Below the pieces are notes generated by a model. It saw nothing but the letters and a program-made list of their open reading frames with translations. It had not been told where the DNA came from and ran no database searches. Of a DNA stretch of 64,000 bases, positions 2 through 47,635 are shown piece by piece. Origin of the DNA: Euryarchaeota archaeon UBA251 (GTDB taxonomy: Archaea; Thermoplasmatota; Poseidoniia; Poseidoniales; Thalassarchaeaceae); the NCBI GenBank assembly GCA_002497905.1, contig DAFJ01000024.1:260-64259 (forward strand), given 5' to 3'. Each line of letters begins with the position of its first letter. Position 1 is the first letter of the stretch. The position numbers and the translations under genes are program-made.

Positions 2-3000
2 GGTTTCCATCATACGACATGGGCTAATTATTCCGATGTTGCAGTTCTCATCAATAACAGAAGTATGGACAGTGTCCAAATAGGCGAAACTTTCGCTGCA
101 GCTCGTGGTATTCCAGAGGAACGAATCTTCCGCTTAACCAATGAAAGCACCCCTACCAGTGAGACAATCAATGCAGGGCAATTCGACGAGTTCTTTGCTG
201 ATCCAGTTCGAGAGATGATGCTAAATCGGTCACTTGGCGGCGAAATCAACTACATTGTCACCACAAAAGGCATTCCACTTCGGGTTAATGGAGGCACTAA
301 TTCACGTGCATCATTTGATTCAGAACTAGCTCTAATCGATTCTGCGCAGTATTCTCCAGCAATTCATGCGAATTACTGGACTGAGCATGCGTATGGCCCT
401 TGGTCGGACACAGTTGGAGATGATTATTCCAGTTATAGTGAGACGCCTGTGCCAATATTCAATCGGATTGATCAGGGATTCTATATTGTTACTAGATTGA
501 CTGGATATGATGTTAGTACTGCACTTGGCCTCATTGATCTTGCCAACGAGTCATACGGTTCTAGAGGCACTACTGTTCTCGATTTGGCTACAAATCGGAA
601 TTCTTCTGGATATCAGTTCTGGAATGATGCCCTATATCGTGCCGATGAAATAGTCAATGGCACCCTTGGTTTTCCTACCGAGTTCAATCAGAACTCAACT
701 TATCTGACGAATGTCGATAATGTAATCCAATATGCTGCGTGGGGGAGTAACGACGGCTCTTGGGGGGATAACCAACTACCAGACAGTGGGTTGGATGCTC
801 CGGATGGCTCTACAAGTTCGGGTATCCGTTCATGGGAGGCATCCACTCCTGTGGTATCGGTAGGGGAGACAAGTGATTGGTACTGGGACGATTCCGTTAA
901 GAAAAATGGCAATGGGGCAGCATCTCTCAGTATTTCATCGGCACCGTGCTCGGCAACAAATGGGGAGATTACCTCAGGCCTCTTAGCTGAGTATTTCGAC
1001 AATCAGGGATTGTCTTACAACTCATCCTTCATGCCGAATCTCACAAACCGTGCCCCGAACCATTTCCGTTCCGAGGCCAACATCGATCAGACTCAAGTGA
1101 ACACATATTGGGCCGGTCTCGATTCACGGTTTGCCGACTATTTCTCGGTACGTCACACTGGTGTGCTGACAATTCCCGAGGATGGGAACTGGACAATCTA
1201 TTCTAATGCTGATGACGGTGTTATGATTTGGATTGATGACGTCCTAGTCGTCAACAATTCAGGTGTGCATGGTATGCGAGAGGTGGGTGTTACGGTCAAT
1301 CTTACGGGGGGCGAACATCGATTCCGAGCCGAGTTCTTTGAGCATGGCGGATGGGCCGGTCATATCGTTTCATGGGAGGGTCCAAATCTAACAAAACAGG
1401 TAATTCCTCCTTCAGCGTTCAGTCGTGCGATGAGTGCTCCCATCCGTTCGGATATTCTAGTCCATCATTGGGATTTTGAAGCTGGGAACGGAACAGTCGT
1501 CGAGGACTTGGTTGGTGATGCGAATCTTTCCATGTCAGGGTCTCCAACATGGCAATCCTGTTTGCTTGGGAACTGTATCCATTTGGATGGTGTTGATGAT
1601 GAACTACGAGTGGATGTTGACGATCGCTTAGGTAATTTCACTATCTCCCTGTGGGCTAAGGCGAACCATACAGGACAACCAGGGTATGCCTCTGTTGTAG
1701 CTGTGAATGATGTGGGTGGCGATTTCGATTCTTTCCAAATTATGACTAGTGGTTCGACACCAGGTGTCTGGCAACTATATCACAACTCTAGATACGATTT
1801 TGGCACAGTTTCTGCAAGTGAATGGGTTCACTTTGTGGTGGTGAAGGACGGTGATCAACTGATGCAGTACATGGATGGAACTCTCGTCAATAATATCACA
1901 TTGCCAAGCGGAGCAATCGATGAGATTGATCTTTACAAATTCGGTGTTAATCGAGCAGGAAATACGCATTGGGCTGGACAAATCGACGAGGTTCAGGTGT
2001 GGACCGAGGCTCTCAATGCATCCGACATTACTCTGGTTAATGGGGAAGTAGCCCTCGATTGTCCATCTTTCACAACCGTTGGTCAGGGATTAAGTCGAAT
2101 CTCTACTAACCTCACAATTGATTTAGAACAGACAGACCATGCGTGGATTCTCTCAGGTCATGGCCGATCTACAGGGGAGATTAATGCAGATTGGATGTTG
2201 AACATAGAAGCTTACGACGGCAATGGCTCTCTTCTTTCAGTCAATTCAACCAATCCAACTACCATGACACCTTCTTGGGCCCAACAGGCCATACGATTCC
2301 GTCCACATGAAAATGCAACCACATTACAGATTTCTTACGAAGCCGAGATTCTGAATATTAGTCGCGAAGGCACCTTGCACTTCGACACGACAAATCTTCG
2401 AATTATCCGCCCACATATGGGCTGGATTCCAGGGTCTATCGCGGAGACTGCAGTATCAACGGGGGGGCGTTCCTTCAATTGGGGCACAGAATATGGGCAG
2501 AGCCTCATTGCCGATATTCTTGAGGATGGTGTTTCTGGTGTCAAAGGATATGTGTACGAGCCTTATCTGACAGCAGTATCTAGGCCAGATTTGATGACTG
2601 CTTACTATGCATCAGGGTACAATCTTGGTGAGGCTTACACTGCATCTAACGGCCACCTGTCTTGGATGGGAGTGGTTGTAGGGGACCCAAAGATGGCGCC
2701 ATTTTCGGATCAGTTACACGACGTAGAAGTTCGGAATGTATCGATACCTGTTAGGGCTTCAGCGAATGAGAATTTTGAGATACATGTGGACGTTGCAAAT
2801 CTTGGTGCATCATCCGCATCTGGATGGATTGAAGTTAGGGAAAGAATTGGTAACTATCTGTTGACAAATCAATCGATTACTTTGCCTGCAGGCGATGAAC
2901 CGGGTTCTATCGCAACACTCCTCATCCCGGTTATGACTTCAACTACCGGATATGTGGATTTCCAGGTTCGTTACATCGCGGATGATGGTCCAATCTTGAA

Positions 3001-4987
3001 TCGATCCCAGTTTGTGCAGTCGAGAATTCTCTCAGAAAGGGTCGTACACAACAATTTTCAAACGGTGAATACGCAAATTAACGGGCCCCCGGTAATCACA
3101 GATATTGCTTGTTCGTCAAATGTTGTCCCACGCGGTGCTACTGTTGCTTGTTGGGTGGATGCGACGGATGATTTTGGTATGGCAACAGCTCAAATGACAA
3201 TCATCGGACCAGAAGGATTTGTCTTGATTTCGATGAATGCTCTATCGAGTGGTTCCGAACGATGGACAGCCTTCTTCGATGTTCCTGGTAATGCCACCCT
3301 TGATTTTTATGATGTACAATTCGATATTACCGACATCGATGGCGTCAATGTGACTTCAAACCTCACCGATGCTCTTGAATTCATAGATTCCCCTTCGATT
3401 TGGTATGGGATTCACATTCAGGGTGCTGATGAGAACGATTGGAACGGAGATACAAATCTTCCATCAAGCACCCCTGAAGGAATGATTCGAGGGAGAGAAG
3501 CAATCATTCGTGCTTGTGTTGAGGATGTAGATCATGATCCTATTACTGAGGCTCCTACGTTCTCTTTTGAATCCGGTGTCTTAGGGGTTGTCGTCGCTCT
3601 TCCGAAGGATCCATCATCTAGTTTTCATTGCTATGCAAGCACCTTACTCCTTCCATTAGATCAGCCATTAATCCCCATTCTTGGCCGTCTAATTGATTCA
3701 GAGGGAAATACCCAGTCAACCCGATCGATCCGCGTTGAAAACGAGGCACCAACCGTTTTGTTGACCTTTGAGAGGGAGGGTATATCGGAAGGTTTCGCAT
3801 TTGGTGTTGGAAATGAATCAGTGAGAATTTCCGTGTTGGATTTGGATGCTGTAAATGGAATGGCAAATGGTCAATTGACATTGCAATGGCCAGAGCAGGG
3901 TGAGATGAAAATCCCGTTCACGGCCATGACTGATGGTACTGATACTATCGTCCCGATTCCGATGCCTGGCCCGGGTCTGACGGCAGGTACGCTCTTACTC
4001 GATGTATCTGTTATCGATCGTGATGCAGGTCAAGCTATCCAATCTATTTCTTTACCTGTAGAGACTCGTCCACCGTCAATTTCAGAGATTAACATCTGTC
4101 GAGGAGGGGAGATATTCCCTCTAGTAAATGGTTCAATCTTGAATCGAGGTGAGGCCAATCACATGGTAGTGTCTCTCGATATCCATCGCAAGGTCTTGCA
4201 GACGACTGCATCAATTCGTCAGGCAGGGTGGAGTGAGACGCTTGATTTCTCACTTGAAACCCCTTCTAACTGTGAGGTATTAGATGCCATTGTATACACT
4301 GTGAATGTTCCTTCAGATTTCACAGAGGGGGGGGCCTCAATCGTATTGATTGCTGTGGATCAGGATGGGCTGGCCTCGGGCTGGACCGAATCGATTGAGA
4401 TTATTTTTCCCTCACCTGTAATTCACGATATTCATTGGCCATTAGGGGCTGAGGTTGGTATCCCTAGTACGATAGGGTTCAATGTAACAGATCTTGACGA
4501 CTTGTCTAGTGTTCTGTGCAATATCGATATTGTTCAAGGGAACCTTAGTATTCTATCTGTAGAGGCGTCACCCGGCCAGGAGGGTGGCATTCTTGTCGAA
4601 TGGAAACCAGGTCGACCGATGGAGAACGTCAGTGCAAGTATTGTGTGTCGAGATGAGCTTGGTCGTGTTGACGAATCCAATATCACGGGATTGAATGTCA
4701 CAGGGGAGGTGGAACTACTCATAGATGATTCATTTGAAGAAACTGAGGAACAGGCGGATGGAATTGGTTTCATGTTACCTGGTGTCGTACTCGCAGTTCT
4801 GATACTGTTGCTGTTAATTACTCAAGTATTACGCAGCGCACGTTTTACTTCGATGAAGGATGAATCCGAATCTCCTTGGATTGTTGCGGAATCCGATGCT
4901 TTACTGATGCAACTCGACACCTCTTCAATTACTGATGATGAATCTGATGTTTCGACAAATGATAGTGATGTTGTGAATGAGGATTGA
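2..4987 (+). CDS. Giant membrane-anchored surface protein (5' end outside the window) with PA14 and LamG/concanavalin-like lectin domains, a long beta-rich stalk, a C-terminal TM anchor and an acidic tail
   Basis: The frame is open from nt 2 with no stop before the ATG at 65, so the true start lies upstream. PA14-like block GLLAEYFDN..FSVRHTG..DDGVMIWIDD..HIVSWEG at ~977-1385. LamG-like block HHWDFE..LDGVDDELRV..FTISLWAK..IDEVQVWTEAL at ~1460-2030. Hydrophobic helix LPGVVLAVLILLLLITQVL at ~4770-4835. Confidence 0.85.
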   Translation, partial: GFHHTTWANYSDVAVLINNRSMDSVQIGETFAAARGIPEERIFRLTNESTPTSETINAGQFDEFFADPVREMMLNRSLGGEINYIVTTKGIPLRVNGGTNSRASFDSELALIDSAQYSPAIHANYWTEHAYGPWSDTVGDDYSSYSETPVPIFNRIDQGFYIVTRLTGYDVSTALGLIDLANESYGSRGTTVLDLATNRNSSGYQFWNDALYRADEIVNGTLGFPTEFNQNSTYLTNVDNVIQYAAWGSNDGSWGDNQLPDSGLDAPDGSTSSGIRSWEASTPVVSVGETSDWYWDDSVKKNGNGAASLSISSAPCSATNGEITSGLLAEYFDNQGLSYNSSFMPNLTNRAPNHFRSEANIDQTQVNTYWAGLDSRFADYFSVRHTGVLTIPEDGNWTIYSNADDGVMIWIDDVLVVNNSGVHGMREVGVTVNLTGGEHRFRAEFFEHGGWAGHIVSWEGPNLTKQVIPPSAFSRAMSAPIRSDILVHHWDFEAGNGTVVEDLVGDANLSMSGSPTWQSCLLGNCIHLDGVDDELRVDVDDRLGNFTISLWAKANHTGQPGYASVVAVNDVGGDFDSFQIMTSGSTPGVWQLYHNSRYDFGTVSASEWVHFVVVKDGDQLMQYMDGTLVNNITLPSGAIDEIDLYKFGVNRAGNTHWAGQIDEVQVWTEALNASDITLVNGEVALDCPSFTTVGQGLSRISTNLTIDLEQTDHAWILSGHGRSTGEINADWMLNIEAYDGNGSLLSVNSTNPTTMTPSWAQQAIRFRPHENATTLQISYEAEILNISREGTLHFDTTNLRIIRPHMGWIPGSIAETAVSTGGRSFNWGTEYGQSLIADILEDGVSGVKGYVYEPYLTAVSRPDLMTAYYASGYNLGEAYTASNGHLSWMGVVVGDPKMAPFSDQLHDVEVRNVSIPVRASANENFEIHVDVANLGASSASGWIEVRERIGNYLLTNQSITLPAGDEPGSIATLLIPVMTSTTGYVDFQVRYIADDGPILNRSQFVQSRILSERVVHNNFQTVNTQINGPPVITDIACSSNVVPRGATVACWVDATDDFGMATAQMTIIGPEGFVLISMNALSSGSERWTAFFDVPGNATLDFYDVQFDITDIDGVNVTSNLTDALEFIDSPSIWYGIHIQGADENDWNGDTNLPSSTPEGMIRGREAIIRACVEDVDHDPITEAPTFSFESGVLGVVVALPKDPSSSFHCYASTLLLPLDQPLIPILGRLIDSEGNTQSTRSIRVENEAPTVLLTFEREGISEGFAFGVGNESVRISVLDLDAVNGMANGQLTLQWPEQGEMKIPFTAMTDGTDTIVPIPMPGPGLTAGTLLLDVSVIDRDAGQAIQSISLPVETRPPSISEINICRGGEIFPLVNGSILNRGEANHMVVSLDIHRKVLQTTASIRQAGWSETLDFSLETPSNCEVLDAIVYTVNVPSDFTEGGASIVLIAVDQDGLASGWTESIEIIFPSPVIHDIHWPLGAEVGIPSTIGFNVTDLDDLSSVLCNIDIVQGNLSILSVEASPGQEGGILVEWKPGRPMENVSASIVCRDELGRVDESNITGLNVTGEVELLIDDSFEETEEQADGIGFMLPGVVLAVLILLLLITQVLRSARFTSMKDESESPWIVAESDALLMQLDTSSITDDESDVSTNDSDVVNED

Positions 4988-6455: not shown

Positions 6456-7223
6456 TTATTTGCGAAGACCAAGTTTCTTCGCAAGTATCGCAAGTGGGTC
6501 GTAGTATTCGGTGACTACACGTTCCTTTAACGGAATGATTGCGTTGTCTGTAATGTTAATTCCAGCAGGGCATACTTCTGTGCAGCAACGAGTAATATTA
6601 CAGTAATTGATGCCAAAATCGTCCTTTATCTCTTTCAATCGTTCTATCTTGTCAAGCGGATGCATTTCTAAACCTGCAAGTCGGACAAAGAACCTTGGAC
6701 CAACAAATTCTTCGAACATTTGGTGTTCACGCATTACATGGCATGTATTCACACATAACATGCACTCAATGCAACTTCTGAATTCTTGAATCCGATTTGC
6801 TTCGTTTTGATGGAAAACCCAATCTTTCTCATCTGGGCCTGAGATTGGCGATATTCGCTTATCTGTTTTGTAAGCCCACGATGTGTCTGTGACTAGATCG
6901 CGAAGTAGCGGAAATGATTGCATGGGTTTTATTGTAATTGGAGCAGATGGGTCAGGCATATCATGAAACACTTCGTCCATTCTAGTCATGCACATTAGTT
7001 GTGATTTTCCATTAATTTCCGCGCTGCAAGATCCACATTTACCAGCCTTACAATTCCACCTACATGCTAAATCAGGTGCGTCAGATGATTGTATTCTATG
7101 AATAACATCGAGAACAACCATACCTTCGTCTAATTCGACAGTGTAGTCGATCATTTCTCCTTGAGCGACTCCTGAATCATCAGGAGCGCCCCTGAAGACA
7201 CTGAAAGTAACTTTGTCTGCCAA
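6456..7223 (-). CDS. sdhB: Succinate dehydrogenase/fumarate reductase iron-sulfur subunit
   Basis: 2Fe-2S motif CRWNCKAGKCGSC and 4Fe-4S/3Fe-4S motifs CIECMLCVNTC and CTEVCP. The start is TTG at 7223, 2 nt after the sdhA stop. Confidence 0.9.
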   Translation of the reverse strand: MADKVTFSVFRGAPDDSGVAQGEMIDYTVELDEGMVVLDVIHRIQSSDAPDLACRWNCKAGKCGSCSAEINGKSQLMCMTRMDEVFHDMPDPSAPITIKPMQSFPLLRDLVTDTSWAYKTDKRISPISGPDEKDWVFHQNEANRIQEFRSCIECMLCVNTCHVMREHQMFEEFVGPRFFVRLAGLEMHPLDKIERLKEIKDDFGINYCNITRCCTEVCPAGINITDNAIIPLKERVVTEYYDPLAILAKKLGLRK

Positions 7224-11958: not shown

Positions 11959-14181
11959 ATGGCAGGAGCAGATGAATCAGTGACTCTCCGTGTTGCGAAA
12001 GCAATTCCCAGTGATGTTGGACATGGCCGAGCTCGTGTCCCATTCAACAATGATCTTGATCTGAAGCCAGGTGATATCATCGAGATATCTGGCGAGAACA
12101 AGACGGCTGCAGTTGTATGGCGATGTCGGCCAGAGGATGCTAATCTTGGTGTCATCCGAATAGATGGCATCATCCGAAAGAACGCAGGGGTTAGCCTTGG
12201 CGACCGTGTCGATATCAGTAAGGTCGAGGTCAAGAAGTGTGAACGCCTCGTTCTTTCTCCAGTTATGGCTAAGCAGCAGAAGGTCCGCTTTGGACCAGGT
12301 ATCGAAGGATTTGCTCGCCGAGGTTTGAACAAGAGACCAGTTGTAGCCGGGGATCGGATTTTCATCCCTGGTATGACTCTATTTGCTGAGGCCCTCCCCT
12401 TCGCAATCGTAAGCACTCGACCCAAGGGTATCGTACAAGTCGCGCCAGAGACGGAGATTGTAATCAAAGAGGAGATACTAGACGAGGAAGAGGATGCTGC
12501 TGGTCATCAAATCGCGTACGAAGATATCGGCGGCTTGGGCAATCAACTCCAGAAAGTCCGAGAGATGATTGAACTCCCACTCAAGCATCCGATTCTGTTT
12601 CGCAGGCTGGGTATAGATCCACCCAAAGGTGTGCTCCTTCATGGTCCGCCTGGAACAGGAAAGACGATGATTGCCAAGGCGGTTGCTTCTGAGACACAAG
12701 CCCATTTCACTTCGATTAACGGTCCAGAGATTATCTCGAAGTATTATGGTGAATCGGAGAAGCAACTCAGAGAGATTTTCGATGAAGCTACTCAAAATGC
12801 TCCTGCGATTATTTTCATTGATGAATTGGATAGTATTGCCCCTAAGCGAGAAGACGTCACAGGGGAGGTAGAGCGTCGTGTTGTCGCGCAACTACTGACA
12901 TTGATGGATGGTATGCATGGACGTGACAATGTCATCGTAATCGGGGCAACGAATCGTCGTGATGCGATTGATCAGGCCCTACGGCGCCCCGGTCGATTCG
13001 ATCGTGAACTTGAAATTGGCGTGCCAGACAAGGAAGGTCGACGCGAGATAGTTGACATCCACACGCGTGGTATGCCAATTAGTGACGATTTTGAGATAGA
13101 ATGGGTCCTCGAGAATACTTACGGTTTCGTTGGCGCAGACATCAATGCCCTCGTTCGAGAGGCCGCCATGAAGGCTCTTCGGCGCTATCTTCCGGAAATC
13201 GACCTAGATGAGGAAGAGATTGCACCCGAGGTTCTTGAGAAGATGGAGGTTCAGATGAACGATTTCAAGGAGGCGATAAAGGATATCGAACCCAGTGCAC
13301 TGAGAGAGATTTATGTCGAGATTCCAGAGGTATCATGGGACCAGGTAGGCGGTCTTCATGAGATTAAAGATCGGCTTAAGGAGAGTATTGAATGGCCATT
13401 GACTCAGCCAGAGTTGTTCGAGCATTTTGGTGTGAAACCTCCTAGAGGTGTAATCCTCTTTGGTGCACCCGGTACTGGGAAGACCCTCCTTGCAAAGGCA
13501 ATTGCGAATGAAGCGAAGGCGAATTTCATCTCTATCAAGGGTCCAGAGATGATTTCGAAATGGGTGGGGGAATCCGAACGAGGTATTCGTGAGGTGTTCA
13601 AGAAGGCTAAGCAAGCCTCACCTAGCATCATTTTCCTCGATGAATTCGAATCAATCGCAGGTGCTCGTGTTGAGAATAGGGGCGAAGGTAGCGACGTGAT
13701 GAATCGTGTCGTCAACCAACTCTTAGCTTCAATGGACGGTGTCGAAGCCCTAGATGGAGTCATTGTCATTGCAGCAACAAACCGTCCTGAAATGATTGAC
13801 CCAGCACTTCTCCGGTCGGGTCGTTTCGAACGGGTCCTGCACGTCCCTCCGCCAGATGAGGAATCTATCCGTGAGATTTTGAAGATCCATACTGATGGTA
13901 TGCCAATTGGAAAGTTCTCTCTGGATGATATGGCGAAGCCGTTGGCTGGATATACCGGAGCAGATATCGAGGCAATTTGTCGTGAAGCCGCTCTTATCGC
14001 CATGAGGGCAAAGAGGAAGACAATTACTCGTAAGCACTTTGAGGAGGCTATCGATAGAGTTCGTCCTACTGTGACACCTCAGATGATGGAGTATTACGAA
14101 AAGCTTCAATCGATGCTTACCAGTGGACTTGATTCTATTCGACGTAATAATGACGGTCTTCGTGGGATTGAATCGGTGTGA
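11959..14181 (+). CDS. cdc48: Cdc48/VCP/p97-type AAA+ ATPase with two ATPase domains
   Basis: N-domain followed by two AAA modules. Walker A GPPGTGKT and GAPGTGKT; Walker B IIFIDELD and IIFLDEFE; 740 aa. Confidence 0.95.
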
Positions 14182-14190
14182 GGTGATTCG

Positions 14191-14433
14191 ATGCCTGCAA
14201 CCTTCACGCGGGAACTTCTCGCGAGGGAGGTTCGGGACAGGAGTGGAGATGTTCTCGGCCATGTCGCCGATCTTATTGTTGACTCACGCACCGGCTCTGT
14301 AACCTATATTTTGGTTAAGATTGCGCAGGAATTAGATCCTGCCCAACTACCATGGCCTTCCGAGGGGGGAATGATTCCTCTCCCCATAGACGAGGTCCGA
14401 GAAATCGGCGCAATCGTTCAACTGCATCGTTAA
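14191..14433 (+). CDS. PRC-barrel domain protein
   Basis: 80 aa. VRDRSGDVLGHVADLIVDSRTGSVTYILV is typical of a PRC barrel. A strong SD GAGGTGAT (14180-14187) overlaps the cdc48 stop. Confidence 0.6.
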   Translation: MPATFTRELLAREVRDRSGDVLGHVADLIVDSRTGSVTYILVKIAQELDPAQLPWPSEGGMIPLPIDEVREIGAIVQLHR

Positions 14434-14503
14434 TCTGTATGCGCGGGACCGCACAACCGTCTTAAGGCTCGCATGAACGTCTGAATCTTGCTCCACTTGT
14501 TGG

Positions 14504-16159
14504 ATGGTGATTGGATTGGCTACATTGAGCGCTGCTGCTGCGACAGATTGGTTGCGTTCAGCGAACGGACGTCGTTCGATTGCGATAGTCCTGTTTTATC
14601 TCACGCTTGGAACCCTTCTAATGACGGTGGCGGGCACTTACATCGAAAGATCAGAAGTACACCAGAGTGCTTACGGAACGGATTGGAATGATATGAGTTC
14701 CTTCCGTGAAGATATCAAGGCACAGAACCTCACAACCACTAGCATAGTCAGTAGCCCTCTTCTTCTAGAGGAGATTCAATCGCCTAGCGATACGGTGTTT
14801 GTAATCTCAGGCGTGGAACGCGATACAATCTCGTTACCAAGTTTCAGTGGGGATTCATCTGTGATTAATTTGGTTGAAGGACTCGGTTATTCAAACTCTG
14901 AGATTGAAGCCATTAGGACCTTTGTTGAACGTGGTGGGACTCTAATCATGCTAGATGATTTTGGATATTCACAAGGCCTAGCTGAAGATTTTGGTCTTGG
15001 GTTTAGCGGTCACCAATTGTATGATACACAGACATGGGATCCTAGTTTAGACTACAATTTCGTATGGTCGAATATTACGAACGGATTCAATTACACCAGC
15101 ACTTCGGGTCCAAAGACGGAAACAAATCCTTGTACTGCGGATGGAGATATTGACGGAGTCCCCGATTTCCTCGATGTTGAATCTAGTAATCCTAGTGTTG
15201 GATTCGAACGTCTGCCTACCTCGACGGATCTTGGCCTCTGTGCGCACCGATGGGATTCTGTAACTCAGCAATATGATACAGACCCTGGTTACGATCTTCT
15301 TCTCAACCAACCCAGCGCATTCGATAAGGACCTCTCAGGAGACGAGGATCAGAATCTCTATGCGATCGGCTACTCCTCTCAAGATGCATATCTTGACACC
15401 AATGATGATGGTCAGCTAACTGTTGGATTCAGTGGTTCAGAAGTTGGTGCCGATGAGCAGGGTCCATTCGCTACATACATCAAATACTGCAGGTCAAGGA
15501 ACTGTGACAATGCTGATGCTGGTCGTGCATTCTTCGTGACAGATGGCAGCCTTCTAATCAATGCGCTTTACGATACTGTGGGCTTAGCGGAGGGTGCTTA
15601 TGGGGACCTGAACAAGACGGTGCCTGATAATGACAATCGGCGATGGGTTTTGGATGCACTTGCTGAAGCACTCATGTCAGAGGATGGTGAGATATCTGCA
15701 GAAGCACAAGTGATTTTTGATGAAAGTCGCCATCAGCAACCAAGTTTCATGGGGGATACCTACAATCTTCTCTACTATATTCTGATTTACTTTACTAACG
15801 ATTGGATGGCGATGCTGTTTATGTTCCTTGGACTATTCGTTATGTTTGAGTTCATTATCATCAAGAAGATGGATCCAGAGCCGTGGAGGCACGTCTTCAG
15901 CATCATCTACTATGGATATGGAGATGCAGCGAGATATGAGTACTACGCGAATCCAAAGAAGATCAAGCAAATCCTACTAACCAGAGTGAGAAACGTCAAT
16001 TCATTGAGTCGTGAGGAATTCGATGCCTTGCCTGCACGTGAGTTACAGAAGATGGTGGATGATCCTGTGCTCGTTAAATTCATCTTCGAAGATCGCCGAT
16101 ATTCGATGGAGGAAGTCATCGCGGTGATTAAGCGAATCAAGACATGGGGGCGGCGCTGA
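14504..16159 (+). CDS. Membrane protein with a large acidic extracytoplasmic domain, tentatively DUF4350-like
   Basis: TM helices at both ends. The GGTLIMLDDFGYS segment and a Ca-binding-like DGDIDGVPDFLD are present. It lies immediately upstream of, and overlapping, a DUF58 gene, as is typical for DUF4350/DUF58 operons. Confidence 0.55.
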   Translation: MVIGLATLSAAAATDWLRSANGRRSIAIVLFYLTLGTLLMTVAGTYIERSEVHQSAYGTDWNDMSSFREDIKAQNLTTTSIVSSPLLLEEIQSPSDTVFVISGVERDTISLPSFSGDSSVINLVEGLGYSNSEIEAIRTFVERGGTLIMLDDFGYSQGLAEDFGLGFSGHQLYDTQTWDPSLDYNFVWSNITNGFNYTSTSGPKTETNPCTADGDIDGVPDFLDVESSNPSVGFERLPTSTDLGLCAHRWDSVTQQYDTDPGYDLLLNQPSAFDKDLSGDEDQNLYAIGYSSQDAYLDTNDDGQLTVGFSGSEVGADEQGPFATYIKYCRSRNCDNADAGRAFFVTDGSLLINALYDTVGLAEGAYGDLNKTVPDNDNRRWVLDALAEALMSEDGEISAEAQVIFDESRHQQPSFMGDTYNLLYYILIYFTNDWMAMLFMFLGLFVMFEFIIIKKMDPEPWRHVFSIIYYGYGDAARYEYYANPKKIKQILLTRVRNVNSLSREEFDALPARELQKMVDDPVLVKFIFEDRRYSMEEVIAVIKRIKTWGRR

Positions 16160-17415
16160 ATATGTGGACTCGAAAGGCTTCGATTCTTGGTGCATCTGGA
16201 GTATCATTAGTTCTCATTGGAATGATGATGTCTAACTTCCAAATGATGGTTTTTGGTGTTGCTTTTGTTTCTTTTATCGCTGTAGCCTCATGGATTACAG
16301 GTCATGGTGACATCGAGGTTGTTCGTACTCTCAGTGCCGATAATCTGTACAAGGGTGACGACCTATACGTTGATCTTGAGATTACCAATTCTTCTTGGCG
16401 TAGGACTCAACAACTCGAAATCTACGATAATATCCCACATGAAATGAAACTGCGAAGTGGACTCAATTACATGCGTGTCAATCTTGGACCTGGTGAAACT
16501 ACTCGTATTCGTTACGTACTTCGTTGCCCTCTACGGGGGCACTACTCCCTTGGCCCAATTTCGATTCGCTACCGCGATTCGTTCAATCTATTTGCACAGG
16601 AAATGTATGTTGACCACCGTTCGGATCTTATTGTCTTCCCACAGGTGCGTGAAATTGAGGAGGCGATGGTTCGTAGTCGCACTCCTAAGATGTATACCGG
16701 TGCAACGACTCTCAGGACACCTGGTCCGGGAACTGAGTTCTTCAGCCTACGTGAGTATGTCCCGGGTGATCCGTTTAAGATTATCAATTGGAAGGCATTT
16801 GCCCGAACGGGCACATTGATTGTCAATGAGAAGTGTAGGGACGCAGTAACAGACGTATTCATTTTACTCGACAGCCGTGATATCAGCCGTATTGGTACAG
16901 TGCTCAAGAATCCACTTGAGGTGGGCACAGTCGCAGCAGCATCTCTTGCATCGTATTTCATCAAACGTCGTGATAGCGTGGCTCTTGCAGTATACGATGA
17001 TCGCCTTTCATTCCTACCACCAGACACTGGTGATAAGCAGTATTTCAAGATCCTGAGTAGCCTTGCTGGAGTTGCTCCAAAGGGTGCGATGCCCCTGCAA
17101 GCTGTGACAAACGCGCTTTCATCTCGATTCAGTCGAGGCTCCCCAGTCTTCATCATTAGTGCGGCTGAGGGTGATGGGACAACAATTCCTGCGGTGCGAG
17201 ACCTTGCTGGACGTGGCCACGAGGTCATTATCCTCAGTCCGAGCAGTGTTGATTTTGAACGGCTCGTTAGTCGAATTCCTCGAACATCCTATGAGGTTCT
17301 CAAGCTTGAGCGTCAGAATCGTTTGACTGCTCTTGCTGGATTCGGAGCACGTGTGATTGATTGGATGCCGGACGTGGAGCTGTCCCAAGCTCTGTTACAG
17401 GTCAAGATGGGGTGA
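16144..17415 (+). CDS. DUF58 family protein (vWA-like, MoxR-operon associated family)
   Basis: N-terminal TM hairpin and the DUF58 signature REYVPGDPFKIINWKAFARTG. ATG at 16144 overlaps the upstream gene; alternative ATG at 16162. Confidence 0.8.
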   Translation: MGAALNMWTRKASILGASGVSLVLIGMMMSNFQMMVFGVAFVSFIAVASWITGHGDIEVVRTLSADNLYKGDDLYVDLEITNSSWRRTQQLEIYDNIPHEMKLRSGLNYMRVNLGPGETTRIRYVLRCPLRGHYSLGPISIRYRDSFNLFAQEMYVDHRSDLIVFPQVREIEEAMVRSRTPKMYTGATTLRTPGPGTEFFSLREYVPGDPFKIINWKAFARTGTLIVNEKCRDAVTDVFILLDSRDISRIGTVLKNPLEVGTVAAASLASYFIKRRDSVALAVYDDRLSFLPPDTGDKQYFKILSSLAGVAPKGAMPLQAVTNALSSRFSRGSPVFIISAAEGDGTTIPAVRDLAGRGHEVIILSPSSVDFERLVSRIPRTSYEVLKLERQNRLTALAGFGARVIDWMPDVELSQALLQVKMG

Positions 17416-17419
17416 TAGA

Positions 17420-18661
17420 ATGGCAGACGAAGTGAACTTACAGAGCGAAGGGCAGACCAGTCTGCATTTGCGTTCTCTTCGCCGGAAGTGGCAGGTACTC
17501 GCCCTCCAGATTACTGCAACGATTTCTCTCGTTTGGATGTACATAATGATGACACGTACCTATGGGTCATGTGATCCAATTGATGCAACTTGGTGTCCAG
17601 CTGTGGATCACACGATTACTCTCGGCGCCTTAGATCAATATCTTGTTTCGATTAACAAGTCATTGCCTATTCCTGATTGGATGATTGGTATGGGTAACGA
17701 GGGGGACGGCCGATATTGGATGCCACTCTTGATTATCGGGGCAATTGTTGCCGGATGGACCTTCCTCGGCTATCAGTCGATGAAGATTCGGCGCCGTGTT
17801 AATCTGGGTATTCTATCGGTTGCATTACTGTATCTTGCAGGTCTTTTCCTCATTACATGGCTCTTCGGAATGATTGGCTCATTTACCCTATACTTGCCCT
17901 TTGGCCAAGACGAAATGAATCGGAATCATGTGGAGTATCTCATCGGGCCGTTACTGCTCTACATTGAACTCTTCATTCTACTGATTTACTTCCTTCCTGT
18001 ATTCACTGGATTGATGGGTGTATGGCGTTTGTCTAAGCAGCAGATTACATGGTCGGTAGGTTCCACTATCGTCTATCTAGGAATTCATTCATTGCTTTCC
18101 TATGAGGGCGTTCGATCTTCTGTTGAGGTCAATCTTCAGGCTCTTCCAGTACAGATTGGTGAGGCTACTCAATGGGGAGGCCTAATTGCGCCAGAAATTG
18201 TCCCGTTGTTGACGATTGGTCTACTGATGATGATCTTCTTGGAATCAGGTTCTGCAACAATAAGATACATGCAGTATGCGTTCAAACTCCCCGAATCTTG
18301 CAAGAAAGATCCAGAATACGTCCGGCAATTCGACAATATTCTGAATTCCCATCTCAAGCATACAGCTGGCATGACTTTCTTTGTGGGTCTTGTTACTGCC
18401 CTTGCCCTGAAGTTTGATGACTTGATTGTTGACCTCATGTCTGTCTTCGAAGGGACGCAGTGGAGTGGCCAAGTTGAGGAGTCACTCGAGCTTCAACTTA
18501 CCTATGGGACTGTAATTTCAGCACTAATTTTCGTAATCTTTGTTGCAGGAATGCGTTACATCATTCCATGGGCTCGTATTAGCGGCCTAATTGAGAAGGG
18601 ATTGAATCAGGTCAATGGAACTGTAAGGGCTACAAACAGTTCAACGATCGAAGAACCGTGA
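17420..18661 (+). CDS. Polytopic membrane protein (~9 TM), third gene of the DUF4350/DUF58 operon
   Basis: ATG at 17420, 4 nt after the DUF58 stop (the track start at 17357 is TTG). Many hydrophobic helices. Confidence 0.6.
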   Translation: MADEVNLQSEGQTSLHLRSLRRKWQVLALQITATISLVWMYIMMTRTYGSCDPIDATWCPAVDHTITLGALDQYLVSINKSLPIPDWMIGMGNEGDGRYWMPLLIIGAIVAGWTFLGYQSMKIRRRVNLGILSVALLYLAGLFLITWLFGMIGSFTLYLPFGQDEMNRNHVEYLIGPLLLYIELFILLIYFLPVFTGLMGVWRLSKQQITWSVGSTIVYLGIHSLLSYEGVRSSVEVNLQALPVQIGEATQWGGLIAPEIVPLLTIGLLMMIFLESGSATIRYMQYAFKLPESCKKDPEYVRQFDNILNSHLKHTAGMTFFVGLVTALALKFDDLIVDLMSVFEGTQWSGQVEESLELQLTYGTVISALIFVIFVAGMRYIIPWARISGLIEKGLNQVNGTVRATNSSTIEEP

Positions 18662-18906: not shown

Positions 18907-21900
18907 TCAGATGTCGAGATCCGCTAAATCGTCCTCAAGCGACGACAAGGCATCACGTTGGTTTGGGTCTGCTGGCATGGGAACACCGTTCCGGATAGAT
19001 TGTCGGTGCTCGGACATAGAATCGACTTCACGGAGTTGCCGTTCGGTCTCATGGAGGTCTTGAACTTCCTTTGATCCAAGGATTGCTGAGGTTGGAACAA
19101 GGCCTAGATCAGATCGGTTTGAGATACTGACGCCATGTGTCTCTGAAGGTTCAGGTAGGGGTTCCCAAGTAGAGCGAACTTCACCATCATTTCTTTCCAC
19201 CTTGCTGTTTTCTTCTTTCCGTTCTGGATCCATTTCTTGAAGTGCCCGGTCATCAATCTCAGGGCGTTGCACCCCAACTAGTCGCCCAGTCTCGAAAGGT
19301 AACATACCGGATCTTTGGAAGCGCCAGATTGGCCCATGGAATCCCCCTTCCTCACTTGAGAGTGCTTCGAGACGCTTCGCCATCCTCTCCAGTGCTTCAA
19401 TAGTCGAGGCAAGATCCACGGATTGTCCTGCGTCTCTCTGGTCTGCATCGATGTAGATATCGTCGAGGGCTGATTGGATAAGTGCTTGAGTTTCAGCAGC
19501 TATGCGCGGCAGTGTCTCAGGGCGTGTAAGCATTCGCTCAATCGCTTCAATTCGGCTTCCAGGCATACCAAGATCATTGAGGCTACGGAGAACGTCACGC
19601 ATTTGTCCAATGGTGGTGGCTGCTTCTTCGTAACCACGAATTATGTCTTCCAAATCTAGTACTACATCGTTGACAATTTGCCCGAGCATGTGGTGCAGGC
19701 GTTGTTGAACCGACCAGCGTGTCAGGCCACGGACAGCAGAAGCAGTCTCTGGAGCCTGTTGTTCAAGAAGATCCATCACTTCAGTCGAAAGAAGGTGACG
19801 TGGTGTTGCTGCAACTTCATCAACAGTGTGTTGGATAACCGCTAGTCCTCTCTCGACAGCGCGATCGAGGAGAACCATAGATAGGCCACGATTACGAGCA
19901 CTTTCCATCCGTTCAAGCACTGGTTCGAGTGCACGCAGTCCCTCGTCGTCAAGGAGGGCTCGTGCGAGCGGCTCTTCTTGGAGGCGTGCGCGGATACGGT
20001 CAGCTTCAGCAATGTCAACTAGTGCCTGTTCATGAGCATCAGTGAGTTCTTCTGCATCAGCAATCATCTCTCTGAGTTCCGCTTCTGCCTGCGCCTTCCG
20101 TGCATCGAGATCACCTAGTTCCCGCATCAGAGTCCGTCGTTCTGACATGAGTTCTTTCAATTCGGTCTGAAGGAGGGATTGCCTTCTCTCAAGGTCATTC
20201 GTGCGACCTCGATCTTCGTCGATTTGTCTCCTTAGAGTGTGGAGATCCCCTTCAAGTGCTGCAACTTCCGCTCGATGATTTCTCATACGTACTTCGGCTT
20301 CCTTTGTTTCTGCTTCAGCGAGACGGTGCCGGTCGCGTAGAGATGCGACCTGTTCGGAGAGAACACGTTGGACACGCTCATCTTCGTTGAGTGCAGTGCG
20401 GACTTCGTCGAGTCGAGATTCGGCATCATTGAGGGTAGCACGCGTCTCTACCTCCTTCTTCATAATCTCCTCAAGCTCAGTACTCAGTTCCTCGCGCTTC
20501 TTGCTCTCACCTATAGCCGATGCAATCTCACTGGCCTTGCGCTCGACGAGGTGTTCGAGTTCTGCGACACGCTTCGCAAGAGAATCAGCTCTTGTTCGAT
20601 CAGCCTCGCTAGATTCACCTGCACGTTGGACAATGAGTCGCGCTTGGTCCAATTCATCGTTTAGGCTTCGAGCCCGGTTAGTGGCCTCATCGAGGAGTGC
20701 TGTCTTCTGGGCGAGGGTTTCATCGGATTGAGTGCGTTGAGTCTGTTCCTCTTCGAGCATCCGTTCCAAACGACCACGGTCCCGCTCTAATCCAATTTTG
20801 TCATCTTCTAATCGTCTGATTCGGTCGAGGACTTGGCGATCTTCAGGCTGTAGTACTTTGCCCGCTGCAGAAGATGGTAGAATCTTCGCGGTAGCACGTC
20901 CACCCGTGTCTAATAATCTCCATTGGATCTTTGAAGAGGCTACAGCGTCCATCCCCATCTCGAATCGGTATAGTCGATCCAAACGGTCAGTAAGGAGGTC
21001 GCGCCTACTCTCTGAACGTGTGCGGACAGTGGCTATCGAATGACACATCGCTTCGAGAGTGAATCCTTCGATATTCCCTCGGCCAAGTGTGAGCCTTGCA
21101 GAGCGTTCCAAGCGATGGAGTTGAAGATCAGCACTTGGCGATGAGATATTACGAATTGAGGCAGCTAATTCCTCGACTGTTGAATAGATACCTGAGGGCA
21201 GCCCATCTATGAGAAGGATGGATACGGGTTCTCCCTTGCCTTCCGATTTCAAATGTCCCGTAATTTCCTCGGTCTTTGCCGTGGATAACATTGAGATTAA
21301 TGCGTCGACACCTCCTTTTCCTTCTCGAACAATGAATCCGTCTGATGGCGCCACAATCTCTGCATCAGCATCGTTTTCCGCAGGTTCAATCATGCCTGCA
21401 GCATTCATCAGGAGTGTCATAGGGTCGGCCCCGCCGGTCGTCCAGAGTGCTAATCCTGCTGTGCCATCTCTTGCGACAGTCATTTCATGCTCATCGAAGG
21501 CTTGTCGATACCAGGGTGCAGGGGATGCTCCCATGAGTTGAGTCAAGGCATCCATGCCTCTCATTTGGGCATCAAGATCTGCAGAAAGTGCATCCGGGTC
21601 AGCCGGCGTTTCACCTGAGGAATGGATGAGAACCCCATCCTCGAATGCTAGAGCCGCGATAACTCCAGTTTCCGATTCAAGCACGTCGACGACGAGGGGC
21701 CAATCATGCGTGGCTGCAGGTAGACGCCGTCCGGCTAGACCTAATGTTCCCATCAATGCCGGATCAGCAAGACATTCGGGAATGCCATCGATGAGGCTCC
21801 GCACTTCCTCTAACAATAGGGTGTATGCCTTGTGTCTCAATTCGTGAGCATCCTCTAACTCTACCAATCGTGCTTTTGCCGCATGTCCTCCGAGGTAGTG

Positions 21901-22086
21901 TTTGTTCTCCTCGGCATCAGCCAGCCAGCCGACTATATGTCCACCTGCCACAATTCTGTGTGCACAGGGGCTTCGTGACTTTGGTTTGTAACTCGAGATG
22001 ATTCCACATTCGAAATCAACCACTTCGTTCAGCGCACTCCCGTCGAATGTGCGGTCTATGGGGTCTCCATGGGGTAGGTCAAACAT
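18907..22086 (-). CDS. 1059-aa protein with a Roadblock/LC7-like segment, a PATAN(DUF4388)-like segment, a ~300-residue coiled coil and a helical C-terminal region
   Basis: Roadblock-like TGVIAALAFEDGVLIHSSGE..AGLALWTTGGADPMTLL at ~21382-21714. PATAN-like VDALISMLSTAKTEEITGHLKSEGKGEPVSILLIDGLPSGIYS at ~21052-21339. Uninterrupted E/R/L/A heptad-rich region at ~19927-20800. Confidence 0.7.
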   Translation of the reverse strand: MFDLPHGDPIDRTFDGSALNEVVDFECGIISSYKPKSRSPCAHRIVAGGHIVGWLADAEENKHYLGGHAAKARLVELEDAHELRHKAYTLLLEEVRSLIDGIPECLADPALMGTLGLAGRRLPAATHDWPLVVDVLESETGVIAALAFEDGVLIHSSGETPADPDALSADLDAQMRGMDALTQLMGASPAPWYRQAFDEHEMTVARDGTAGLALWTTGGADPMTLLMNAAGMIEPAENDADAEIVAPSDGFIVREGKGGVDALISMLSTAKTEEITGHLKSEGKGEPVSILLIDGLPSGIYSTVEELAASIRNISSPSADLQLHRLERSARLTLGRGNIEGFTLEAMCHSIATVRTRSESRRDLLTDRLDRLYRFEMGMDAVASSKIQWRLLDTGGRATAKILPSSAAGKVLQPEDRQVLDRIRRLEDDKIGLERDRGRLERMLEEEQTQRTQSDETLAQKTALLDEATNRARSLNDELDQARLIVQRAGESSEADRTRADSLAKRVAELEHLVERKASEIASAIGESKKREELSTELEEIMKKEVETRATLNDAESRLDEVRTALNEDERVQRVLSEQVASLRDRHRLAEAETKEAEVRMRNHRAEVAALEGDLHTLRRQIDEDRGRTNDLERRQSLLQTELKELMSERRTLMRELGDLDARKAQAEAELREMIADAEELTDAHEQALVDIAEADRIRARLQEEPLARALLDDEGLRALEPVLERMESARNRGLSMVLLDRAVERGLAVIQHTVDEVAATPRHLLSTEVMDLLEQQAPETASAVRGLTRWSVQQRLHHMLGQIVNDVVLDLEDIIRGYEEAATTIGQMRDVLRSLNDLGMPGSRIEAIERMLTRPETLPRIAAETQALIQSALDDIYIDADQRDAGQSVDLASTIEALERMAKRLEALSSEEGGFHGPIWRFQRSGMLPFETGRLVGVQRPEIDDRALQEMDPERKEENSKVERNDGEVRSTWEPLPEPSETHGVSISNRSDLGLVPTSAILGSKEVQDLHETERQLREVDSMSEHRQSIRNGVPMPADPNQRDALSSLEDDLADLDI

Positions 22087-22090
22087 TTCA

Positions 22091-22417
22091 TCACCTCAAC
22101 AAATTGGCAAGATCGCCTCGCGTTCTCCTGACTTCGTGGGCACAACGCCCAAGACGTCTTGGGGAATCAGTCTTCATCCAGAGCAATGCGTCGTCCCCTG
22201 TTCTTGAAGCGATGACCGCCCCTTGTTCAGACTCAATCCACCACTCTTGTAGCTGCCCAATTCCCGATTCACGTGCTAGACGTTCGACTGTAGTCCATGA
22301 AGGGACGGAGGATATTCCGTCTTTAGAAGGAGTAATCATTGTACCGTCTAGTTTCTCCATCCATGATTCGACCACACCAGGGAGGTGGGTATATGCGCGA
22401 ACGACGTTCTCAATCAT
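22091..22417 (-). CDS. Roadblock/LC7 (MglB-like) domain protein
   Basis: 108 aa. LPGVVESWMEKLDGTMI and GAVIASRTGDDALLWMKTD fit the Roadblock alpha-beta-alpha pattern. Its stop lies 4 nt before the 1059-aa gene. Confidence 0.5.
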   Translation of the reverse strand: MIENVVRAYTHLPGVVESWMEKLDGTMITPSKDGISSVPSWTTVERLARESGIGQLQEWWIESEQGAVIASRTGDDALLWMKTDSPRRLGRCAHEVRRTRGDLANLLR

Positions 22418-22519
22418 GCTATCTAAAGAGGTTCAGGTTGTATTCGACTTCAAGAACTTGCCCCTGAAAGGGGCCACAGATAGTGTTTCGAGGGTTTCTT
22501 GTCTGGTGCCGAGAATCTG

Positions 22520-22636
22520 AATTGGAATCATTATCCAATTGGAGGAATCTAACTTCCCACTTCTAATTTCTAAAAGTGTATTTTCCAATTGAAAAATCTA
22601 ATTTCTAATTGATTAATTGAACGATTCGTTGAAGCC
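22520..22636. promoter_or_regulatory. AT-rich, repeat-laden divergent promoter region
   Basis: Perfect 10-bp palindrome TCCAATTGGA (22534-22543). 12-nt direct repeat TCTAATTTCTAA at 22562-22573 and 22597-22608. CCAATTG occurs twice and AATTGA three times. Confidence 0.4.
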
Positions 22637-43508: not shown

Positions 43509-44117
43509 ATGGTGGATGAGCAGATGGTGGTTCGCACGCCGCGGCTCGTCCTCATTGCAGGGGCTACAGGTACAGGAAAGTCAAGGCTCGCCCATATGGT
43601 TGCACATGAGATGGGTTTCAGTCGATGTGTATCTACGGACACGATTCGAGAGGTACTCCGGGTTGGCCGTTCTCCCAATGATTCTCCTGAACTTCATCGT
43701 TCCAGTTACTCTCATGGGAAAACGGGTGACTCTGTGAACGACTGGTTAGATGCTTGCGATCCAATCAGACCTGGTATATCAGCAGTCATTAATCGTGCTC
43801 GATCCCAAGGCGTCGACCTTGTTCTCGAAGGTGTGCATCTAATCCCTCAGTCCAATTGGATTAGGGAATGGCGTGAGAGTGGGGGGCGTGCAGTCGGGAT
43901 CTATGTCACAGCGGATGCCGAGGCACAACATCGCGGATTTATCGTTGAACGTGAGTCCAGTAGTTATCGTGGTTCAGAGAGGTATATGATGGCCTTTGAA
44001 CGAATTCGAGCAATCCAGCGCGCCATGATGGAGCGCGGACGCCTTGCTGAATGGATCCGAATTGATCCTCTTCTCCACGAGGATCCATTGATTCGTGTCC
44101 GTCAGAATCTGATGTGA
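43509..44117 (+). CDS. P-loop kinase of the 2-phosphoglycerate kinase family
   Basis: Walker A AGATGTGKS followed by VSTDTIREVLR, characteristic of the 2PGK family as I recall it. Confidence 0.6.
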   Translation: MVDEQMVVRTPRLVLIAGATGTGKSRLAHMVAHEMGFSRCVSTDTIREVLRVGRSPNDSPELHRSSYSHGKTGDSVNDWLDACDPIRPGISAVINRARSQGVDLVLEGVHLIPQSNWIREWRESGGRAVGIYVTADAEAQHRGFIVERESSSYRGSERYMMAFERIRAIQRAMMERGRLAEWIRIDPLLHEDPLIRVRQNLM

Positions 44118-44549
44118 TTATGATACATCGATTTCTGCGTGTAAATCAAAGAGAAGTCGCCCGTTTCGATCAGCAATTCCTGCTTCAGCGACGACGGTGC
44201 AAATATCAGAATCGATTGTTGCATTAAGATCAACAAGAATGATTTCTACACCTCGATGTTCCCCATGTCGCATCAAATCCGCCTTTACACTATTTGCTGC
44301 ATCTAGACACCTTTCTTCCACTGTCCCAATTCCGTTCAAGTCATCGAATCGATGCTGAATTGATGTTTTCCAGACCTCACTAGTCTCTTCAGCAGTTTGT
44401 AGTACAGCATCATCGGATGCATTGTAGGGTTCCCCCATACCGACAACCTTCACGCTATAGATCGCCATCGACAATAGTGCAAGAATGAGAACCACTCCTG
44501 TAGCTAGGAGCATTTGTGCCTCATCATTAGAACGCTCTCTTCTCATCAT
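44118..44549 (-). CDS. Type IV pilin-like protein (class III signal peptide candidate)
   Basis: MMRRERSNDEA/QMLLATGVVLILALLSMAI: a charged N-terminus, then A-Q, then a hydrophobic helix. ATGATGA start/stop overlap with the upstream gene. Confidence 0.5.
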   Translation of the reverse strand: MMRRERSNDEAQMLLATGVVLILALLSMAIYSVKVVGMGEPYNASDDAVLQTAEETSEVWKTSIQHRFDDLNGIGTVEERCLDAANSVKADLMRHGEHRGVEIILVDLNATIDSDICTVVAEAGIADRNGRLLFDLHAEIDVS

Positions 44550-44992: not shown

Positions 44993-44996
44993 CCAA

Positions 44997-46532: not shown

Positions 46533-46550
46533 CGTATATCCCTCCTCTAT

Positions 46551-47618: not shown

Positions 47619-47635
47619 CCCTCATCCCTCCGGGT

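Follow-up and report, generated by a model that had tools for sequence, protein, structure and literature searches.

A tightly spaced three-gene operon

We analyzed a stretch of 64,000 nucleotides (nt) of contig DAFJ01000024.1 from Euryarchaeota archaeon UBA251 (hereafter the window), in which a minus-strand open reading frame (ORF) for a 108-amino-acid (aa) Roadblock/LC7-like protein (gene 1; 22091-22417) lies upstream of a minus-strand ORF for a 1059-aa protein (gene 2, encoding the large protein; 18907-22086). An initial annotation of this DNA had reported the two genes as a same-strand pair 4 nt apart, and the ORFs match this description exactly: 4 nt separate the stop codon of gene 1 from the ATG of the large gene, which is preceded by the Shine-Dalgarno-like box GAGGTGA, within TTGAGGTGATGAAATG. 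A third ORF (gene 3, 84 aa), which the initial annotation did not mention, starts 11 nt past the stop codon of the large gene with a GAGGGAG box ahead of it, and its 3' end overlaps a convergent membrane-protein gene by 21 nt. Gaps of 4 to 18 nt between the operon genes are retained in other lineages. The three genes form a real, tightly spaced operon.

Predicted Roadblock units in gene 1 and in the large protein

Taken alone, the 108-aa protein scores below the Pfam threshold for Robl_LC7 (PF03259), with 12.3 bits where the cut-off is 23 and an E of 0.14, whereas 8 of the 10 aligned members of its family, drawn from orthologues of both Marine Group II (MGII) families, match this model (best E, 2.6e-5). 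The family profile also matches a solved Roadblock structure, 7f8m, over its full length (positions 2-106; E 3.2e-6), as well as two Asgard Roadblocks and, weakly, MglB. The orthologue of a divergent lineage (locus L006) was recovered at 6.7e-9 by a profile built without it. On this evidence from family profiles, the only level at which the relationship is visible, the gene 1 product is a Roadblock/LC7 protein, as initially annotated, the single sequence itself being a weak match.

A plus-strand ORF of 157 aa (22047-22520), antisense to gene 1, probably represents a spurious shadow ORF.

The large protein had likewise been proposed to contain a second Roadblock-like segment in its N terminus. 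We modeled it with AlphaFold2 (AF2), both at full length, using an alignment of 15 sequences (mean predicted local distance difference test [pLDDT], 64), and as residues 1 to 392 (mean pLDDT, 70), with predicted template modeling (pTM) scores of 0.31 to 0.45; the two models are mutually consistent. Residues 126 to 232 are modeled at a pLDDT of about 80 with the topology listed in Table 1. When the two models were compared with the PDB by Foldseek, the top 50 chains were all of the Roadblock family in both cases. The best match of the fused Roadblock was Myxococcus xanthus MglB (6hjm; E 2.6e-6, TMt 0.76, root mean square deviation 2.4 Å, 110 columns), and further matches comprised LAMTOR2/3, Thermus thermophilus MglB, Asgard Roadblocks, and dynein LC7. 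At the sequence level, positions 126 to 220 of a profile of the N-terminal 392 residues matched a stand-alone Roadblock, P0097, at E 1e-4 in a HMMER search of 1.84 billion representatives. A comparison of the internal Roadblock (15-sequence alignment) with the gene 1 family by hhalign gave E 2e-4 over 80 in-register columns, which is suggestive; an earlier hhalign comparison of the internal Roadblock with the small protein, made with shallow alignments, was negative (probability, 0.4%).

Other searches with this segment were negative. The Pfam hidden Markov model (HMM) Robl_LC7 did not match the internal domain in the whole protein or in excised pieces, and its sequence profile retrieved only noise from the PDB (for example, IMPDH). 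A fold search against viral structures also gave nothing significant. Because the top 50 Foldseek matches hold only Roadblock-family chains, we conclude that residues 126 to 232, as modeled, are a genuine Roadblock domain. The second Roadblock-like segment can thus be placed at about residues 126 to 232, with the MglB, P0097, and hhalign matches pointing the same way.

Distribution, conservation, and expression

The best database matches come from metagenome-assembled genomes (MAGs) and are labeled Candidatus Thalassarchaeaceae, Poseidoniaceae, or "Euryarchaeota archaeon." The window is therefore from an MGII archaeon (Poseidoniales), in agreement with the archaeal origin assumed in the initial annotation. 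The HMMER search with the N-terminal profile retrieved 76 proteins, made up of about 13 full-length clusters at 50% identity (1020 to 1089 aa) and, for the rest, fragments. When one genome was scanned for each GTDB species, 291 genomes were found to encode a relative of the large protein. The labels of the best 80 of these 291 species genomes are Poseidoniales, Thalassarchaeaceae, Poseidoniaceae, MG-II, and unclassified archaea, with "Rhodobiaceae" as the one exception.

The exception is a MAG contig of an "uncultured Rhodobiaceae bacterium" (locus L088; CALDQY010000297.1), which carries a complete archaeal three-gene operon. It is probably a mis-binned archaeal contig, because its layout is the same as that of the Poseidoniales/Poseidoniaceae loci L079 and L080.

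All 63 informative loci, meaning those in which the large ORF is complete and sufficient DNA precedes it, have a small same-strand Roadblock ORF immediately upstream of the large gene. The gene pairing is thus kept across the relatives rather than absent from them. Judged from the genomes and proteins searched, the operon is core to Poseidoniales and the family is confined to them. The large protein is annotated as hypothetical in every source, and in the literature we found no description of the family.

Contigs from two marine metatranscriptomic runs were at least 99% identical to the window over much of the large gene. One RNA contig (21966-22222) crosses the junction of genes 1 and 2, and a different one lies over gene 3. 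These contigs show, qualitatively, that the locus is transcribed in the sea, and they speak for co-transcription of its genes.

The AT-rich divergent intergenic region at 22418-22636, between the Roadblock operon and the tRNA-thiolation gene ncsA/ttuA, is nearly devoid of RNA-contig coverage. It contains repeated AATTAGAAATTAGA and CAATTGGA(A/T)AAT-like motifs, which may be shared promoter or regulator sites.

Architecture of the large protein

The predicted parts of the large protein are listed in Table 1 together with genes 1 and 3.

Table 1. Features of the Roadblock operon (window coordinates; a, alpha-helix; b, beta-strand)
Feature	Position	Strand	Evidence
Gene 1, stand-alone Roadblock/LC7 of the RB type with C-terminal helix	22091..22417	-	ORF; Pfam on orthologues; 7f8m profile match
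Large protein 1-105, near-invariant N-terminal peptide MFxLPxG (1-7) and small beta-rich domain (b-b-b-b-a-b-a)	21772..22086	-	Alignment, AF2
Large protein 126-232, internal Roadblock domain (a-b-b-a-b-b-b-a)	21391..21711	-	AF2, Foldseek, HMMER, hhalign
Large protein 246-330, second small a/b domain (b-a-b-b-b-a-b), family unassigned	21097..21351	-	AF2, alignment
Large protein 344-387, linker helices with R-T-R-S-E-x-R and F-E-x-G motifs	20926..21057	-	Invariant columns, AF2
Large protein 414-704, three-segment heptad coiled coil	19975..20847	-	AF2, periodicity
Large protein 705-935, all-helical C-terminal domain, family-specific	19282..19974	-	AF2, conservation
Large protein 936-1040, acidic tail, poorly conserved, predicted largely disordered	18967..19281	-	pLDDT, identity, isoelectric point
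Large protein 1041-1059 plus stop codon, conserved C-terminal peptide	18907..18966	-	Alignment
Gene 3, 84 aa, cytoplasmic N-terminal stretch and two hydrophobic helices	18641..18895	-	Sequence, positional homologues

At the N terminus, M1, F2, L4, P5, and G28 are invariant in the alignment, and the small beta-rich domain is modeled at about residues 27 to 100 with pLDDT values of 55 to 74. This domain had no Pfam match, and hhalign detected no similarity between it and either the Roadblock domain or the second a/b domain. An internal duplication was considered and rejected, since the hhalign comparisons of the N-terminal domain with the second a/b domain, and of each with the Roadblock domain, came back empty. 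The second a/b domain is modeled at residues 251 to 325 with pLDDT values of 80 to 90, and G259, G277, G295, and P297 are invariant in it. Two linker helices follow at 344-353 and 359-387 in the AF2 models, with R355, T356, R357, S358, E359, R361, F375, E376, and G378 invariant.

The initial annotation had seen a PATAN/DUF4388-like segment in this part of the protein. Pfam gave no match to DUF4388 (PF14332) in the whole protein or in excised segments of 4 members, and at E ≤ 10 neither DUF4388 nor any other consistent Pfam family appeared in residues ~246 to 330 of 15 divergent members. NCBIfam and PDB sequence searches returned nothing for the same segment, and no PATAN proteins were present among the 76 matches of the HMMER search. 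Because every one of these sequence tests was negative, PATAN/DUF4388 was rejected as a supported assignment. What is left is the order of the secondary-structure elements and a motif-level resemblance of residues 246 to 330 to DUF4388, with membership unsupported.

Next in the chain comes a long coiled coil. The AF2 models contain long helices at 414-522, 530-657, and 661-704. The heptad (3.5-residue hydrophobic) periodicity is strong: its z score is 10.8 in the first of these helices, 9.9 in the second, and 19.6 over the whole of 414-704. Such values were not attained in any of 1000 shuffles, and the register is constant inside each long segment. The breaks between the segments are conserved Gly-containing motifs, A-x-G-E-S (524-527) and E-L-G-D-L (656-660). 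About 300 residues of uninterrupted coiled coil had been described initially; the length is borne out by the periodicity over residues 414 to 704, whereas the absence of interruptions is not, given the two conserved Gly breaks. Because these two breaks coincide with conserved motifs, the predicted rod is real but segmented.

Pfam identified no family in the whole large protein or in excised pieces, and neither Pfam nor NCBIfam has a model for the family. The only NCBIfam matches were to SMC models, at residues 394 to 705 (E 5e-8 and 4e-6). Such matches could suggest a chromosome organizer of the SMC/Rad50 type. They are, however, limited to the coiled coil and reach 25 to 31 bits against cut-offs of 567 to 729. 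The large protein moreover lacks a Walker A motif, an ABC head, and a hinge, and its ends consist of a Roadblock and novel helical domains. Membership in the SMC family is refuted by the coiled-coil-only nature of the matches and the missing P-loop, and we regard an SMC/Rad50-like role as extremely improbable.

The large helical C-terminal region described initially was recovered, residues 705 to 935 being helical in the AF2 model. Conservation within the protein is highest in this domain, which is family-specific: among divergent members, mean identity to the window protein is 55% here, 30 to 40% in the N-terminal domains, and 23% in the tail. It has 46 invariant columns in 14 divergent sequences, including the stretches LLDRA-ER and RGL-W-V. 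No recurrent Pfam family was found for it in 14 members, and a profile search of 5.8 billion proteins returned only fragments of the same family. From its sequence conservation, the domain is a candidate new domain family. The sole PDB match of its profile was to chains of FliS, a four-helix-bundle flagellar chaperone (1orj, 1ory, and 4iwb), and this match was marginal (E 0.003 to 0.005). It spans about 100 residues (812 to 911; window ~19354-19653), including an LDxIY stretch, and FliS was not matched by Pfam in any of the 14 members. The likeness to FliS is probably a chance similarity between helical bundles.

The acidic tail has an isoelectric point of 4.4, and its pLDDT falls below 50 at residues 957 to 1005. 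The protein ends in the peptide L-x-x-L-E-x-x-L-x-D-L-D-[ILMF]-COOH, which contains a short terminal helix (1046-1055). L1047, L1050, L1054, and D1058 are invariant in 15 sequences; of these residues, the divergent set keeps L1050 without exception and L1054 almost without exception. Neither this peptide nor the high conservation of the C-terminal domain had been pointed out in the initial annotation.

In the original MG-II chromosome (CM001443.1; locus L081, 3907-7082), the large gene is split into ORFs of 947 and 111 aa in different frames. The split lies at ~6747-6750, in the acidic-tail region, and reflects a frameshift or a sequencing error of the assembly.

A self-assembling filament of the intermediate-filament or crescentin type, in which the rod would polymerize and the Roadblock head would regulate assembly, could account for the long, register-continuous heptad coiled coil of a conserved core gene that is expressed in situ. 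However, the rod makes up only about 27% of the large protein, and conservation peaks in the C-terminal domain, not in the rod. Large globular or helical domains at both ends and a disordered C-terminal tail are, furthermore, more typical of tethers and scaffolds. We consider a filament improbable.

Gene 3

Gene 3 is predicted to encode a tiny membrane protein with a polar N terminus and two transmembrane (TM) segments. Its positional homologues align only weakly, with conserved C, P, and E residues. An HMM search recovered the two-TM ORF just downstream of the large gene at 64 of 75 loci. L028, a genome from a clade missed by this HMM, carries a divergent two-TM ORF of 89 aa in the position of gene 3.

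In one deeply divergent lineage (loci L006 and L007; 11221-12567), the two-TM gene is replaced by a gene for a 448-aa FG-GAP repeat protein, which overlaps the end of the large gene.

Genomic context and the question of a partner GTPase

The initial annotation had noted that no GTPase gene lies in the operon or its flanks, and motif scans agree with this. Among ORFs of at least 80 aa in the window, none combines the G1 and G4 motifs (P-loop plus NKxD type). The P-loop ORFs present encode Cdc48, a zeta-toxin-like kinase, a T2SSE ATPase, an adenylate-kinase-like protein, an ABC ATPase (a label taken from the P-loop and the neighboring genes only), and Cdc6. Within ±6 kb of the locus in the 80 species genomes, no G1...G4 arrangement was found except for a spurious match inside the large protein, and no GTPase Pfam family occurs among the annotated neighbors in five lineages. 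The sequence covered amounts to 64 kb of this genome and about 12 to 19 kb of each related one.

These results bear on the possibility that the operon is a GTPase-regulatory polarity module. The Roadblock pair would then act, in the manner of MglB or MglB/MglC, as a GTPase-activating protein or guanine nucleotide exchange factor, or as a receptor, for an MglA/Arf/Rag-like GTPase encoded elsewhere, with the coiled-coil protein as a polar scaffold like FrzS or AglZ that perhaps places a type IV pilus-like machine. In keeping with this, the best structural matches of the internal domain are MglB, including MglB in complex with MglA, and dimers of the Roadblock/longin kind serve small GTPases as conserved platforms (PMC10933270, PMC3747258). 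Type IV pilus loci are, in addition, a frequent location of archaeal Roadblock proteins of arCOG02603 (PMC4858521), and a T2SSE/T2SSF pilus-like locus is present in the same window (44.1 to 49.2 kb). This locus is, however, unlinked to the operon, lying 22 kb off, and the GTPase that the module would regulate is missing from the window, from the flanks in the 80 genomes, and from the called neighbors in the five lineages. We view such a module as the main alternative to the scaffold proposed below, conceivable if rather unlikely.

The pilus- or archaellum-like (type IV) locus occupies 44118-49159 on the minus strand and encodes a T2SSE ATPase (507 aa) and two T2SSF/TadC-like membrane proteins (355 and 511 aa), along with two small ORFs, one of which has a weak DUF7261 match. 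It is adjoined by a gene on the plus strand (43509-44117) for a P-loop protein of 202 aa, kinase-like by its match to Zeta_toxin/AAA_33 (E 1.7e-8). Near the start of the window, a 1640-aa ORF (65-4987, plus strand) with PA14 and Laminin_G_3 (concanavalin-like lectin) domains likely encodes a giant surface adhesin or glycan-binding protein.

The Roadblock operon converges on a second, tightly packed one at 11959-18661 (plus strand), whose products are Cdc48 (740 aa), a PRC-barrel protein (80 aa), DUF4350 (551 aa) and DUF58 (423 aa) proteins, and a multi-TM protein of 434 aa without a family. The usual ATPase companion of DUF58/DUF4350 proteins is MoxR, while the neighboring ATPase here is Cdc48. 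Adjacency with this cdc48-DUF4350-DUF58 operon is kept in all lineages examined, down to about 31 to 33% protein identity. The divergent ncsA/ttuA gene on the upstream side is also kept, as is pyrBI in MGIIa. Because these unrelated housekeeping genes on the other side are likewise conserved in position, we read the synteny as that of a stable chromosomal region, which is no proof of a functional link.

A functional partnership with the convergent operon, in which the Roadblock units would regulate the AAA+ ATPase, much as Roadblock/LC7 accompanies dynein, or the scaffold would organize a DUF58/DUF4350 membrane complex, was weighed on the same evidence. The adjacency is found in every lineage examined, with the 3' ends overlapping by 21 nt. 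The Roadblock superfamily was also first proposed to consist of general nucleoside triphosphatase (NTPase) regulators (Koonin and Aravind 2000, as cited in PMC4316618). The two operons are, however, convergent and not co-transcribed, and the whole region is syntenic, ncsA/ttuA and, in MGIIa, pyrBI included; a link to cdc48-DUF4350-DUF58 was therefore judged unproven. We know of no interaction between Roadblock proteins and Cdc48, and we hold this partnership to be very improbable.

A proposed membrane-associated scaffold

We tentatively favor, at somewhat less than an even chance, a reading in which the locus builds a membrane-associated coiled-coil scaffold or tether that is capped by a Roadblock heterodimer. 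Roadblock domains are known to form homo- or heterodimeric platforms (PMC10933270, PMC3747258), and different Roadblock units pair with each other in MP1-p14, in LAMTOR4-5, and in the C-terminal domains of RagA-RagC (PMC10933270, PMC3747258, PMC5680233). From the strict co-occurrence and tight spacing of the two genes, we infer that the free Roadblock would pair with the fused one to give a canonical dimer platform, of the kind exemplified by these pairs and by MglB2. The coiled coil would dimerize the large protein and extend over tens of nanometers, while the two-TM protein would anchor the assembly in the membrane. The C-terminal domain and the terminal peptide would recruit one or several effectors. 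The ligand of the platform, an NTPase or a helical peptide, would be encoded elsewhere in the genome; in dynein and Ragulator, Roadblocks bind helices of scaffold subunits without an adjacent GTPase gene (PMC10933270, PMC3747258).

Several points weigh against this proposal. The Roadblock heterodimer is deduced from gene co-occurrence and spacing, and a parallel coiled-coil dimer could pair two fused Roadblocks with each other, leaving the role of the free copy unclear. Confidence in the AF2 models is moderate by both pLDDT and pTM (64 to 70 on average and 0.31 to 0.45, respectively), and the models are silent on the oligomeric state and on a fold-back of the coiled coil. Membrane anchoring by gene 3 follows from adjacency only, and the platform has no known effector. 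Finally, metatranscriptome assemblies may contain contaminating DNA.

A more specific version of the scaffold, which we regard as quite unlikely, is a lineage-specific organizer of the cytoskeleton or of cell polarity in Poseidoniales, which are the planktonic Euryarchaeota of greatest abundance. It would consist of a tether of about 40 nm, anchored by the two-TM protein, whose Roadblock heterodimer head would read an unlinked NTPase switch; by means of its unique C-terminal domain and terminal peptide, it would position a cell-surface machine. If true, such an assembly would be a prokaryotic counterpart, outside the Asgard archaea, of Ragulator- or longin-SNARE-like membrane platforms. MGII archaea rank with the most abundant surface-ocean microbes; they are uncultured, and their cell biology is essentially unknown. 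The operon gives a testable handle on how the membrane or the poles of these cells may be organized.

Comparison with known systems

The use of Roadblock proteins as platforms and the existence of multidomain Roadblock proteins are already known, whereas the architecture and the family found here are undescribed. A free and a fused Roadblock without an adjacent GTPase enlarge the known Roadblock repertoire.

SMC and Rad50 proteins have an ABC-type ATPase head, with Walker A/B and signature motifs, whose halves are separated by a hinged antiparallel coiled coil, whereas the large protein is without a Walker A motif. FrzS and AglZ of Myxococcus are generally known to have an N-terminal alpha/beta signaling-type domain followed by a long coiled coil, as the large protein does. 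Unlike it, they carry a (pseudo)receiver head, are bacterial, and lack a conserved C-terminal helical domain and tail, and no homology to them was detected. Proteins with a PATAN domain often occur in association with Roadblock/MglB and REC. Residues 246 to 330 resemble PATAN domains in forming a small a/b domain that adjoins a Roadblock domain, an association that has been documented (Makarova et al. 2006, as cited in PMC4316618), but they have neither an alpha-clip insertion nor a DUF4388 profile match.

Among Roadblock systems, MglB/MglC of Myxococcus and Thermus have the Roadblock fold in common with our locus, and in both cases a small, free-standing Roadblock gene shares an operon with a partner. 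They differ from it in that no mglA-type GTPase gene adjoins the locus or lies in the window, that one Roadblock is here embedded in a multidomain protein of 1059 aa, and that identity is only 13 to 22%. The Asgard Roadblocks (Thor-RB and MKD1-RB; 7yh1, 9jue, and 7f8m, the last a "Robl_LC7 domain-containing protein") all belong to the RB type and have terminal helices (PMC10933270). Structures 7yh1 and 9jue match the fused domain, and the small protein has its best sequence-profile match in 7f8m. However, the Asgard proteins are free homodimers, encoded in genomes with many small GTPases, whereas here a free-plus-fused pair is present in a Thermoplasmatota lineage.

Dynein LC7/Roadblock has the same fold (8j07, 7k58, and 8glv are among the Foldseek matches), and its binding to the intermediate chain is a precedent for a purely structural Roadblock clamp on a helical partner, with no GTPase involved. 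LC7 differs in lacking a C-terminal helix, in being eukaryotic, and in forming part of an AAA+ motor complex. In Ragulator/LAMTOR (MP1-p14, LAMTOR4-5, and the p18 anchor), whose LAMTOR2/3 subunits are among the top structural matches, two different Roadblocks serve as a platform that is held by a separate small membrane anchor, an arrangement to which our locus would correspond if the heterodimer forms as we infer. The two systems differ in that no Rag-like GTPase is encoded nearby and in that the coiled coil and C-terminal domain of the large protein have no counterpart in Ragulator; the anchor proposed here would be a two-TM protein, where Ragulator has a lipidated wrapper.

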